Shown here: positions 3,995 through 15,257 of the stretch, piece by piece
How the letters are laid out: the number at the start of each line of letters is the position of its first letter
How positions within the stretch are numbered: position 1 is the first letter of the stretch
Assembly (NCBI GenBank): GCA_963747235.1
Contig: CAVVEU010000002.1
Location: 32,001 to 96,000 of the forward strand
Direction of reading: 5' to 3'
Length of the DNA stretch: 64,000 bases
DNA from: an uncultured Candidatus Rokubacteria bacterium
Lineage (GTDB): Bacteria; Methylomirabilota; Methylomirabilia; Rokubacteriales; CSP1-6
The notes under the pieces: generated by a model
Databases searched by the model: none
Seen by the model: the letters and a program-made list of their open reading frames with translations, nothing else
What the model was told of the DNA's origin: nothing
Program-made: the position numbers and the translations under genes

Positions 3995-4047
3995 GAACGC
4001 GGTCAAGGCCTTAGCCTACCACAGCCCGCCCCGCGTCCCGGCCGGCC

Positions 4048-5434
4048 TCAGCCGGCGAGCAGGCGCTGGATCAGGGGCAGGGCGAAGTAGATCACGAAGG
4101 CGAGCGCCGCCGCGTACATCATCGGCGCCACCTCGCGCCCGCGGCCGCGGACGAGCTTGATGAAGCAGTAGCTCACGAAGCCGGCCCCGATCCCGTTGGT
4201 GATCGAGTAGGTGAACGCCATCATGGTCAGGGTCAGGAGGGCCGGGAACCCCTCCTCGAAGTCGTCGAAGGGGATCTCGCGCACGAGGCGGCTCATCAGG
4301 TAGCCGACCACGATGAGGGCCGGCGCGGTGGCCTGGGCCGGGACGACGCCGGCCAGCGGCGCGAAGAAGAGCGCGAGGAGGAAGCAGGCGCCGGTCACCA
4401 CCGAGGCCAGCCCGGTGCGCGCGCCCGCGGCCACGCCGGCCGCCGACTCGATGTAGGTCGTGGCGGACGACGCGCCCGCCGCGCCGCCCGCCACCGCGCC
4501 CAGCGAGTCCACCAGCAGCACGCGATTGAGCCGCGGCAGGCGGCCGTCCGGCGTGAGCCAGCCCGCCTCGCCGCCGATCCCGATCACGGTGCCCATGGTG
4601 TCGAAGAAGTCCGAGAGCATCAGCGAGAAGATCGTGACCAGCGCGGTGATGAGCCCGAGCCGGACGAAGACCGAGAAATCGAAGCCGGCGCCCAGGCTCG
4701 AGAAGTCGGGCAGCGCCACCAGCGCCGTCGGCCACACCGCCTGCCCGGGCAGCGGGAAGGCGCGGCCGACCGTGGCGGTGTTGACCGCGATGGCGAGAAC
4801 GGTGGTCACCAGGATGCCGACCAGGAGCGCCCCGGTGAACTTTCTCGCGGTCAGCCAGACGGTCAGCAGCAGGCCGAAGAGCGCCACCGCCACCGGGGCG
4901 GCGGTGAGATCGCCCAGCGTGACCGGCACGCCCGGCGGGCCCGGCTTCACGATGCCGGCCGCGCCGAGCCCGATGAAGAGGATGAACAGCCCGATGCCCA
5001 CGCCGATGGCGCGCTTCAGCGTCGCGCGGGATCGCGTGCATGATCGCCTCGCGGAAGCCGGTGAGCACCAGCACCGTGATCGCGAGCCCCTCCAGCAGCA
5101 CCACGCCCATCGCGGCCGTCCAGGGCAGCTTGAGCGTGGCCACGAGCTGGAAGGCGACCACCGCGTTGATGCCCATGCCCGAGGCGATCGCCAGCGGGTA
5201 ATTGGTGGCCAACCCCATGGCAATGGTCAGCGCGCCCGCCACGAGGCAGGTGGCGGCCTGGGTGGCCGCGAACGCCGGGCCCTGGCCGGCCAGGGGCGGG
5301 ATGCCCGCGAACGAGAGGATCGCGGGATTCACGAAGATGATGTAGGCCATCACCATGAAGGTGGTGAGGCCGCCGCGGATCTCGCCGCCCACCGTCGCGC
5401 GGCGCCGGCTCAGCTCGAACCAGCGCTCGAGCAC
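4048..5434 (-). CDS. NCS2/AzgA-type purine permease (single indel near 5025)
   Basis: GLTTFMVMAYIIFVNP, DFFDTMGT and TYIESAAG split over two frames. Confidence 0.9.
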
Positions 5435-5437
5435 CGG

Positions 5438-6267
5438 TCAGTCGCTTTCCGGGTCCGCCACCCGCGGGAGGGCGACACCCTCTTCCGGCACCACGCGCCG
5501 GGCCACCGTGAGGAACCCGGTGTGCGCGACCATCCGGTGGAACGGACGCACCGACGTGCCGTCGATGTTCCACGGCCGCAGCAGCGTCTCGAACGTCTCC
5601 ACGAGCGCGTAGCCGCGGTTGCGGCGGAGCGTCTCGGTGAGCGTGTGCGACTGGATGATCGTCGGCAGGTAGGAGAGGAAGATCCCGCCGGGCCGCAGCA
5701 CGGTCGCCACCAGGTCCACGAGCTTCCAGGGCTCCGGCAGGTCGAAGACGGCGCGATCCACCGGCTCTTCCTCGGGGAGGCCATCCTCGACCGGGCGGAT
5801 GCGCACGTTCAGGTTGCCGACCTCGCCCATGCGCATGTGGATGTTGGCCAGGGCGCGGCGGCAGAAATCCTCGCGCTGCTCGTAGCTCACCACGCGGCCC
5901 TCGGGCCCACCGCGCGCAGCAGCGCGAGCGTGAGCGCGCCCGAGCCCATGCCGGCCTCGAGCACGCGGGCGCCCGGGAAGATGTCGGCCCAGAACATGAC
6001 CATCGCCAGGTCCTTGGGATAGATCACCTGGGCGCCGCGCGGCATGTCGAGCACGTACTCGGCCAGCGTGGGACGCAGCGCGAGATACCGCGTGCCCTTG
6101 GAGGTGCGCACCCAGGAGCCGTCGGGGTGCCCGATGATGGCCTCGTGGGTCACCCAGCCCCGGTCGGAGTGGTAGGTGTCGCCCGTGCGCAGCAGCAGCA
6201 GATGCCGCCGACCACGCTGGTCGATCAGCAGGACCTGCTCGCCGTCCTGGAACTTATCCGACGCCAC
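5438..6267 (-). CDS. trmI: tRNA (adenine-58-N1)-methyltransferase (single indel near 5900)
   Basis: MPRGAQVIYPKD, VLEAGMGSGALT, DLPEPW, HTGFL. Confidence 0.92.
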
Positions 6268-11259: not shown

Positions 11260-12259
11260 TTACCTCGCGGTGTACTGCGTCTGGTAGTACTGCCGGAACG
11301 CGCCCGACTTGATGGGCTTCCACCACGCGTCGTGCGTGCGATACCACTCCACCGTCGCGGCCAGCGCGTCCTCGAAGCTCGCGGCGGGCGCCCAGCCGAG
11401 CGCGTGGACCTTGCTCGAGTCGAGCGCGTAGCGGCGATCGTGCCCGGGCCGGTCCGCCACCGGCGTGATCAGGCTCTCCGGCTTGCCGAGCAGGCTCAGG
11501 ATCCGGCGCGTGAGCGTCACGTTCTGCACTTCCGCGGCGCCGCCGATGTTGTAGATCTCGCCGTCCACGCCCTTGCGGAGGACGAGGTCGATCGCCGCGC
11601 AGTTGTCCAGCACGTAGAGCCAGTCGCGCACGTTGCGGCCGTCGCCGTAGAGCGGCAGCGGCCGGTCCTCGATCGCGTTGGTGACGAAGAGCGGGATGAC
11701 CTTCTCCGGGTACTGGTAGGGCCCGAAGTTGTTGCTGCTCCGGGTGACGAGCGCGGGCAGCCGGTGGGTGGTCCAGTAGGCGCGGACCAGCAGATCGGCG
11801 GCCGCCTTCGAGGCCGAGTAGGGATTCGACGGGTTCAGCACGTCGCCCTCGCGGGCCGCGCCCTCCGCGATGCTCCCGTAGACCTCGTCCGTGCTCACCG
11901 CGAGGAAGCGGCCGATCGTGAGCTCACGCGCGGCCTCCAGCAGCGTGAAGGTGCCGTTCACGTTGGTGCGGAGGAAGTCGTCGGCGCCCAGGTTCGAGCG
12001 GTCCACGTGGGTCTCGGCCGCGAAGTGCACGACCGCGTCCATCCCGGCCATCGCCTCGCGGACCACCGCCCCGTCGCAGATGTCGCCCTTCACGAAGCGG
12101 TAGCGGGGATTCGCTTCGACGTCGCGGAGGTTCTCGAGGTTGCCCGCGTAGGTGAGCTTGTCGAGATTGACGACCGAGTCGGCGGGATGGCTCGCGAGGA
12201 CGTGGCGGACGAAGTTGGAGCCGATGAAGCCGGCGCCCGCCGGTGACGAGGATCTTCAT
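11260..12259 (-). CDS. rfbB: dTDP-glucose 4,6-dehydratase (extra G near 12237)
   Basis: ILVTGG(A)GFIGSNF, HFAAETHVDRS, STDEVYG, PYSASKA. Confidence 0.95.
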
Positions 12260-14021: not shown

Positions 14022-15257
14022 ATGAAGACGTTGAAGGAGATGCTGGCGGACGCCCGGCAGGTGGTGCCCGAACAGGGGCCGGCCGAGGTGAAGAAGCGGA
14101 TCGACGCGGGAGAGCCGCTCGTCCTGATCGACGTGCGCGATCCCGACGAGTACCGCGACGGCTTCATCGAGCCCGCGACCAATATCAGCCGCGGCTTCCT
14201 CGAGTTCCGCATCGGCGGCGCGGCGGCGGATCCGACGACGCCCATCGTGCTGTACTGCCAGAGCGGCCTCCGCTCCATGCTCGCCGCCAAGGCCCTCCGG
14301 GATCTCGGCTACGAGAACGTGACCAACCTGCAGGGCGGCTTCCAGAAGTGGGCGCAGTCCGGCCTGCCGGTGGTCAAGGACCGCCCGATGAACGCCGACC
14401 AGATCCAGCGCTACAGCCGGCACTTCCTGCTGCCCCAGGTGGGCGAGAAGGGCCAGCGCAAGCTGCTGCGCTCGAAGGTGCTGCTGATCGGCGCGGGCGG
14501 GCTCGGCTCGCCGACCGCGCTGTACCTGGCCGCGGCGGGCGTCGGCACGATGGGCCTGATGGACGGCGACGTGGTGGACGTGTCGAACCTGCAGCGGCAG
14601 ATCCTCCACACCACCGCGAACGTGGGGCGGCCCAAGGTCGAGTCGGGCACCGAGATGATCCGGGCGCTGAACCCGGACGTCAACGTCATCCCGCTGCCGA
14701 CGCGCATCACCGTCGACAACGTGATGGACATCATCAAGGACTACGACCTGGTCATCGACGGGTCGGACAATTTTGATACGCGCTACTTGATGAACGACGC
14801 GTGCTATCTCGCGGGCAAGACCAACGTGCACGGCTCGATCTTCCAGTTCGAGGGCATGGCCACCGTGCTCGCCCCGAACCAGGGCCCGTGCTACCGCTGC
14901 CTCTACCCGACGCCGCCGCCCCCGGGGCTCGTCCCCAGCTGAAGCGAGGCCGGCGTCCTGGGCGTGCTCCCAGGAATCATCGGAGTGATCCAGGCCACCG
15001 AGGCCATCAAGGTGCTGCTCGGCATCGGCGAGCCCCTGATCGGCCGGCTCCTCACCTACGACGCGCTCGGCATGCGCTTCCGCGAGGTCAAGCTCCGCCG
15101 CGACCCCAAGTGCCCCCTCTGCGGCGAGCACCCGACCATCACGGACCTGTCGATCCACCGCAGCGGCGACGCGGCGGCCTGCGAGGTGAGCGACAACGGC
15201 CACGCGGCGCCGGCTTCCGCGCCTGCGGGCACGCCGGGCGCGAAGGCGGGCGGCTAG
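14022..15257 (+). CDS. moeB: Rhodanese-MoeB/ThiF adenylyltransferase fusion, predicted selenoprotein (UGA at codon 307)
   Basis: Rhodanese YCQSGLRS, RYSRH, GAGGLGS, SNLQRQ, CYRC; TGA at 14940-14942 in VPS*SEAGVLG; same frame continues to CPLCG and TAG at 15257. Confidence 0.85.
14956..14975 (+). promoter_or_regulatory. Putative bacterial SECIS hairpin
   Basis: TCCTGGG-CGTGCT-CCCAGGA, perfect 7-bp stem; 20 nt between the UGA and the loop; G at second loop position. Confidence 0.7.

Follow-up and report, generated by a model that had tools for sequence, protein, structure and literature searches.

In a 64,000-nucleotide stretch of an uncultured Candidatus Rokubacteria bacterium (assembly GCA_963747235.1, contig CAVVEU010000002.1, positions 32,001 to 96,000; the whole stretch is referred to below as the window), we found a gene that very probably encodes a selenoprotein. 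The predicted product is a 411-residue enzyme, a rhodanese-MoeB/ThiF E1-like adenylyltransferase, in which the UGA at 14940-14942 would be decoded as selenocysteine (Sec). The gene runs on the forward strand from the ATG at 14022 to the TAG at 15255-15257, and translation of the frame showed this TGA to be its sole interruption. Under translation table 11 the gene is split into an open reading frame (ORF) of 306 amino acids (14022-14942) and one of 97 amino acids (14964-15257). The original prediction for this DNA held that the frame nevertheless continues past the TGA, and this was confirmed: the read-through product has 411 residues and reads ...PPPPGLVPS-U-SEAGVLGVLPG...RRDPKCPLCG. Its features are as follows.

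14022..15257, forward strand: predicted rhodanese-MoeB/ThiF adenylyltransferase selenoprotein gene, 411 codons including Sec307, plus TAG (from the frame, Pfam and NCBIfam).
14079..14357, forward strand: rhodanese domain, residues 20-112 (PF00581, E 8e-21, above cut-off).
14256-14258, forward strand: codon TGC of the rhodanese catalytic Cys79, in the loop CQSGLRS (aligns with the Cys of the Uba4 rhodanese domain).
14412..15116, forward strand: ThiF/MoeB adenylation domain, residues 131-365, spanning the TGA (PF00899, profile positions 1-237 of 238).
14889..14900, forward strand: first CxxC, C290-Y-R-C293, 5′ of the TGA (matched in the alignments by CyrC in MoeB and ThiF from E. coli).
14940..14942, forward strand: predicted Sec codon UGA, residue 307, at the crossover-loop Cys position (from the TGA/TGC column and alignments).
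14956..14975, forward strand: putative selenocysteine insertion sequence (SECIS) hairpin, 7-bp stem UCCUGGG/CCCAGGA with a 6-nt loop CGUGCU (from the fold, published criteria and comparison).
15111..15122, forward strand: second CxxC, C364-P-L-C367, 3′ of the TGA (matched in the alignments by the C-terminal CxxC in MoeB and ThiF from E. coli).

The adenylation domain scores 281.5 bits against PF00899, whose cut-off is 28.1. The product as a whole matches NCBIfam NF006444, the model for MoeB with an N-terminal rhodanese domain, at 535.2 bits (cut-off 449; profile positions 3-375 of 387), and this match, together with Pfam and the TGA column described below, supports the 411-residue Sec307 enzyme with rhodanese and E1-like domains that had been proposed. 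NF006444 (PRK08762) describes a Cys-form MoeB; the match is full length and the domain order is the same, but here a TGA replaces the Cys codon and a candidate SECIS lies inside the coding sequence. The proteins Uba4, MOCS3 and MoeZ also combine E1-like and rhodanese domains, with a crossover-loop Cys corresponding to residue 307 and a rhodanese Cys corresponding to Cys79. They differ in having the E1-like domain first and the rhodanese domain at the C terminus, and in carrying Cys where this enzyme is predicted to carry Sec. Given its N-terminal rhodanese domain and a score of 398.7 bits against the MoeZ model NF005902, under the cut-off of 647, the 411-residue protein falls outside the MoeZ/Uba4 type. 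E. coli ThiF and MoeB, which are without the rhodanese domain and without Sec, align with residues 123-369 at an E value of about 5e-57, both CxxC motifs included. The Gly-rich loop IGAGGLGS, C290xxC293 and C364xxC367 all align with these two enzymes; we take the loop to bind ATP and the CxxC pair to bind zinc. The second CxxC is encoded beyond the TGA, so it would be absent from a product terminated after 306 amino acids.

We then considered which residue the TGA replaces. HMMER alignments against solved structures pair residue 307 with the Cys in nCrtaG of ThiF, in SCGEAG of Uba4 and in tCveaG of E. coli MoeB. Counted from the printed alignments, these are C184 in ThiF and C187 in MoeB. The sequence identity to E1-like enzymes of solved structure is enough to fix the fold. 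The TGA thus sits at the equivalent of the E1 active-site Cys, as the original prediction had it. In Uba4, the crossover-loop C202 is described in the text of PMC7527816 as forming a thioester with Urm1 that is later attacked by the rhodanese persulfide. For ThiF, the text of PMC12596934 describes an acyl disulfide between Cys184 and ThiS.

The TGA is conserved well beyond this genome. A search of 41 related genomes turned up full-length relatives at 65-96% protein identity, nearly all with one internal TGA. Among 30 related loci that we fetched, 29 have TGA at the exact column and one has TGC; among 80 loci of named species, nearly all of which bear the label Candidatus Rokubacteria, Rokuibacteriota or Methylomirabilota, 77 have TGA and three have TGC. 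Every exception in these 110 loci is therefore TGC, and Cys homologues carry TGC or TGT at the same column, so that the alternation of TGA with Cys codons among orthologues, named beforehand as a check, was indeed found. A phylum-wide search of 251 genomes returned a match at E <= 1e-60 in 227 of them, and among the matches listed all but 8 carry TGA; four genomes flagged as unpublished (G116, G233, G084 and G074) were counted only in phylum-wide tallies. In two other families of the class, TGA is present in all three rhodanese-MoeB orthologues examined (57-65% identity), and two further families have members with the Cys form. Furthermore, in other phyla, Latescibacterota and Verrucomicrobiota among them, a scan with a degenerate DNA pattern recovered 15 MoeB-like genes whose TGA falls at this column. 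Eleven of them have the rhodanese-then-ThiF order, one locus ends before the rhodanese region, and three, all Verrucomicrobial, have the Uba4-like order. These last three (L157, L181 and L197) place the TGA at the crossover-loop Cys of a ThiF-then-rhodanese gene; L157 and L181 fail the SECIS check described below. Six loci at 78-96% identity (L048, L049, L050, L064, L091 and L124) come from metagenome-assembled genomes (MAGs) titled Acidoferrum, Limnocylindria, Dormiibacterota, Binatia or Nitrosocosmicus, and their contigs are probably mis-binned or mislabelled. Sequencing runs that contain the stretch are soil metagenomes, together with six runs recorded as RNA in which 25-46% of the sampled words occur; we give this list no weight as evidence.

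This distribution bears on one objection, that the gene is a pseudogene with a nonsense mutation or the product of an assembly error. Frame lesions do occur elsewhere: selD of this genome lies in two frames, and a permease at ~4016-5437 of the window loses its frame. However, independent assemblies supply 99 distinct sequences with the same TGA, which is also seen in other phyla. Both halves of the gene are under purifying selection, with the downstream half the better conserved. We regard a pseudogene or an assembly error as having a negligible chance of being the explanation.

A different objection is that the TGA is a true stop, and that the 306-residue protein and a second one of ~97 residues, started at the GTG at 14964, together form a Sec-free enzyme; the frozen codons that we describe below would then reflect translational coupling. 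Table 11 does give both ORFs, a GAGG lies upstream of GTG 14964, and this GTG, at codon +8, is nearly invariant (96 of 99 sequences). The codons between the TGA and the GTG argue otherwise. In the 99 distinct Sec sequences, codon +2 is GAG in 94 and GAA in 5, codon +3 is GCC in 66, GCT in 20, GCG in 12 and GCA in 1, and codon +4 is GGC in 69, GGG in 15, GGT in 14 and GGA in 1. These codons encode the most conserved motif of the family, xEAGV, and they precede any possible restart codon, no start codon lying between the TGA and the GTG. Since they change only synonymously, the stretch after the TGA is translated in this frame, which speaks against a split gene and a pseudogene alike. In addition, three deviant Sec genes have GTC in place of the GTG yet keep the hairpin, and the exceptions at the TGA column carry TGC and no other kind of sense codon. 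A split gene is, in our judgement, very unlikely.

Decoding of UGA as Sec would require a SECIS, and a hairpin of the expected kind begins 13 nt 3′ of the UGA. It consists of a 5′ arm UCCUGGG (14956-14962), a loop CGUGCU (14963-14968) and a 3′ arm CCCAGGA (14969-14975), forming seven perfect pairs; the distance from the UGA to the loop is 20 nt, loop position 2 is G, and the hairpin alone folds at -11.9 kcal/mol. The position, stem, spacing and loop G of the original prediction were exact. Bacterial SECIS (bSECIS) criteria are given in PMC13188914 (Fig. 2 legend) as a loop of 3-9 nt, a stem of 4-16 bp, a G in the first two loop positions, a location 16-37 nt from the UGA and a minimum free energy of -7.5 kcal/mol or lower. 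The hairpin at 14956-14975 satisfies the published criteria, all four of them as we applied them. We ran our own four-criterion check on distinct gene segments, and 90 of 93 Sec segments passed.

Several observations weigh against selenocysteine insertion here. Three of the 93 Sec segments fail the check (L157, L165 and L181), and three of 10 Cys-type segments pass it. The Cys-type genes pass because the peptide VLGVLPG itself encodes CUGG/CCNGG complementarity, whatever codons are used, and the presence of a hairpin alone therefore discriminates poorly. For a 66-nt fold we obtained z = +0.62, with 144 of 200 shuffles equally or more stable; the folding energy of the hairpin by itself is no better than chance in DNA of 70% G+C. 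A search of 14850-15100 against Rfam with E values up to 10 gave no hairpin match, only a chance internal ribosome entry site. Finally, selenium at residue 307 is what we infer from the gene and its relatives.

With a folding energy that is not significant, the case for the SECIS rests on comparison between genes. The 3′ arm is built from the codons CCA and GGA, and these are rare, as had been claimed: in six ORFs of the window confirmed by Pfam, 2 of 153 Pro codons are CCA and 5 of 243 Gly codons are GGA. The CCA codon of the 3′ arm is nonetheless found in 88 of 99 Sec genes, and none of 7 Cys genes has it. Synonymous diversity at codons +5 to +9 (V L G V L) amounts to 0.06, 0, 0.06, 0.06 and 0.06 in the 99 distinct Sec genes, in which flanking codons range from 0.4 to 0.55; in nine distinct Cys genes the same five codons give 0.49, 0.49, 0.37, 0.20 and 0. 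Across 28 aligned orthologues, codons 311-317 form the region of second-lowest synonymous diversity of the whole gene, the lowest being codons 231-243. The three deviant Sec sequences switch jointly to GUG CUG GGG GUC ... CCC GGC, which makes a different 7-bp stem with the 5′ arm at the same position and a GGUC-type loop. In Latescibacterial genes a stem of 9 to 10 bp with a GUUUU-type loop is made from other codons. The hairpin is thus frozen codon by codon among the TGA genes and rebuilt from other codons in distant lineages, the sort of conservation and covariation for which the original prediction had suggested looking, and these comparisons support selection on the hairpin in TGA genes only.

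We next turned to the machinery for Sec. The genome to which the window belongs (42 contigs, 88% complete, 4.9% contamination) holds all four of selA, selB, selC and selD, whose presence had been proposed as a check. SelA scores 500 bits, and selB, in which the wing domain was found, adjoins selA; the tRNA-Sec gene, with anticodon tca, lies on contig C14, 1.7 kb from selA. SelD is of the Cys type and scores 227.8 bits against a cut-off of 125. A search of the selA/selB loci against Rfam gave no match. The selD gene, at C27:46033-46945 (minus strand), is joined to an N-terminal oxidoreductase-like region and matches over two frames, and a second selD-like stretch, at C8:303114-303868 (plus strand), is split over three; these split stretches look like assembly indel lesions or decayed copies. 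About 2.2 kb from the tRNA-Sec gene, beside an SLT/LysM transglycosylase, is a small Ub-Mut7C/ThiS-like gene (L131, C14:47693-47863, minus strand), and we saw no evident functional link between it and the sel genes.

The same genome has a second selenoprotein candidate. The fdhA gene for the formate dehydrogenase alpha subunit (L147, C8:590703-593795) scores 1122 bits and has one in-frame TGA, at C8:591273, followed by a putative SECIS, GGUCCC-AGCUCUG-GGGACC, whose apical loop lies 17 nt past the UGA. An Rrf2 regulator, a pyridoxal phosphate (PLP) enzyme and a ThiS-JAB gene are found ~10 kb downstream of fdhA. TGA also serves as an ordinary stop. It ends 19 of 41 long ORFs of the window with high G+C at third codon positions, so it has not been globally reassigned.

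These results bear on whether the UGA could be read through without Sec, either by near-cognate suppression or with Cys inserted by the Sec machinery. In favour of such read-through, the enzyme evidently also works in its Cys forms. On the other hand, a full selABCD set and the fdhA selenoprotein are present in the same genome, the SECIS appears to be selected only in TGA genes, and TGA is an ordinary stop elsewhere. We think it highly improbable that the UGA is read without Sec, and return to a Sec307 enzyme in what follows.

Only two genes of the window's genome match PF00899, the TGA gene and a Cys copy on contig C36 (L045, C36:8537-9703). The Cys copy has TGC, is 79% identical to the TGA gene at the protein level, and shares the gene only, not its flanks. 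PF00899 matches nothing but the TGA gene in G001 and G002, two genus-mates whose genomes are 100% complete. We built a quick maximum-likelihood tree of 106 rows with the Sec/Cys column masked, with support from the Shimodaira-Hasegawa-like approximate likelihood ratio test (SH-aLRT) only. The C36 copy groups with Cys forms of other genera and not with the Sec gene of its own genome; it may be a second copy or, given the 4.9% contamination of the bin, a foreign contig. Five Rokubacterial Cys forms, the C36 copy among them, make up one clade with 99% support, and a sixth stands alone. Both groups are nested in the Sec clade, with the Cys outgroup outside. The tree needs at least three changes between Sec and Cys, two of which are forced by well-supported branches. 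This topology indicates Sec-to-Cys reversions within the Rokubacterial genes, an observation that is new here.

Genomes of family f4 (G036:C5 L041 500-1720; G034, G027 and G040) carry an extra, plain Cys MoeB besides the Sec-type rhodanese-MoeB, located directly after a MoaD/ThiS-like ORF that ends in ...AIAGGR. Matches to f4 paralogues with "3-4 TGA" were considered as proteins with several Sec residues and rejected: they are ordinary Cys MoeB (PTCEAAGVLG), and the alignment had overrun the real TGA stop.

Candidate carrier substrates are present in the window's genome. Among its ThiS-family genes is a MoaD-MoaE fusion. Two others are ThiS-like and neighbour PLP enzymes, and one of this pair is linked to a JAB domain; a further gene lies next to a molybdoenzyme, and another is Mut7-C-like. 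From characterized homologues, the likely course of the reaction can be outlined. SelB and tRNA-Sec, directed by the SECIS hairpin 3′ of the UGA, would decode the UGA as selenocysteine. The ThiF domain would adenylate the C-terminal Gly of a small beta-grasp sulfur carrier, such as the MoaD-MoaE fusion or the CysO-like ThiS proteins. Attack on the acyl-adenylate by Sec307 in the crossover loop could then yield an acyl-selenoester, which would correspond to the thioester on Uba4 Cys202; a persulfide on the rhodanese Cys79 would attack the selenoester, and the carrier would leave as a thiocarboxylate. Another route, on the model of E. coli ThiF, would have the selenol resolve an acyl-persulfide through a selenenyl-sulfide. 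Either route would amount to the "Se-assisted sulfur-carrier activation" suggested in the original prediction.

Two points count against this catalytic scheme. The crossover-loop Cys plays different roles in ThiF and MoeB, and C187 of E. coli MoeB is dispensable. A catalytic need for this Cys is thus not universal in the family, and the selenoester step is one that we infer. The carrier substrates, in turn, are assigned by their presence in the genome only.

By analogy, the enzyme may be a MoeZ-like activator of several carriers, with Sec307 in place of the Cys that forms the thioester or acyl disulfide; M. tuberculosis MoeZ serves two carriers. Since it is the only E1-like gene in several Rokubacterial genomes, its probable role covers synthesis of the molybdenum cofactor as well as sulfur transfer of the CysO type. 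A bolder proposal is that the Sec enzyme is the sole activator of all sulfur carriers in Rokubacteria, so that the molybdenum cofactor and molybdoenzymes as well as CysO-type sulfur assimilation would be conditional on selenium, with catalysis through a Sec307 acyl-selenoester. We offer this proposal tentatively and would sooner bet against it than for it.

Sec-MoeB has been known as a category since 2005, from computation only, and this gene is another member. The Sec-containing MoeB was among new selenoprotein families from the Sargasso Sea, with 11 sequences (Zhang, Fomenko & Gladyshev 2005; PMC1088965), and the text of a 2008 analysis of Global Ocean Sampling (GOS) data counts 19 Sec and 2,262 Cys sequences. 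Entries for Sec-MoeB appear in selenoprotein catalogues of 2022 and 2026, which agrees with the statement in the original prediction that such proteins had been predicted before. As described in the text of these papers, the published family shares with our gene the MoeB/ThiF assignment (COG0476/PF00899), an in-frame UGA paired with Cys homologues, a bacterial SECIS and a basis in sequence alone. The published family comes from marine data, whereas here the Sec form is the rule in a soil and groundwater lineage. Judging from the 15 TGA genes of other phyla, the Sec column would be identical to that of the published examples. The text of the Sec-MoeB papers does not give the Sec position, a rhodanese fusion, Rokubacterial members or biochemistry, some of which may be tabulated in figures or supplements, and MoeB is not mentioned in the main texts of the BSepDB and deep-Sep papers. 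Our literature searches found no biochemical study of Sec-MoeB, and a search for Rokubacteria together with selenocysteine returned unrelated papers only. A 2026 review does report, in its text, a Methylomirabilota MAG predicted to have 63 selenoprotein genes. What is new here is that the gene is near-universal in Rokubacteriales, that it is the sole E1-like gene in some complete genomes, and that its truncated annotation is widespread.

The genes around 14022..15257 are dTDP-sugar genes, a protease, an HD protein and tRNA-Arg/tRNA-Pro; as had been noted, no ubiquitin-like gene was found adjoining it. Elsewhere in the window, we considered the TGA at 5438-5440 (minus strand) as a second Sec candidate, as there is coding signal on both sides and a 10-bp hairpin, yet it is an ordinary stop between two genes. 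The region at 4016-6253 (minus strand) holds a GCD14-like tRNA methyltransferase and a xanthine/uracil permease in the same frame with one TGA between them. The permease (~4016-5437) matches profile positions 3-120 only and then loses its frame, probably through an indel. An rmlB-like dehydratase ORF at 11260-12093 (minus strand) matches Pfam profiles only from position ~47-58 onward; this frame lacks its N terminus, again probably because of an indel lesion. Two such frame losses in the window agree with the statement in the original prediction that every other lesion there is an indel.

The split annotation has spread through the databases. In the best 120 clusters of a public protein collection, 71 are proteins of 306 or 307 amino acids that end in ...GLVPS, at 90-94% identity, and one such stub cluster stands for 565 member sequences. 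The full-length matches among these 120 clusters are Cys forms at 75-86% identity, 44 of 45 with CA or CG after the Cys; the single full-length match with CS after the Cys (P0004) might be a Sec protein whose record displays C. With truncated stubs in the databases, pathway reconstructions of this abundant soil phylum see a broken MoeB. A selenol at the E1 position that carries the Uba4 thioester or the ThiF acyl disulfide would offer a natural test of selenol in E1-type chemistry, and, if the bolder proposal is true, the Sec307 acyl-selenoester would be the first selenium-based E1-type intermediate. Where the gene is the sole E1-like gene, cofactor and sulfur metabolism would be linked to the availability of selenium.

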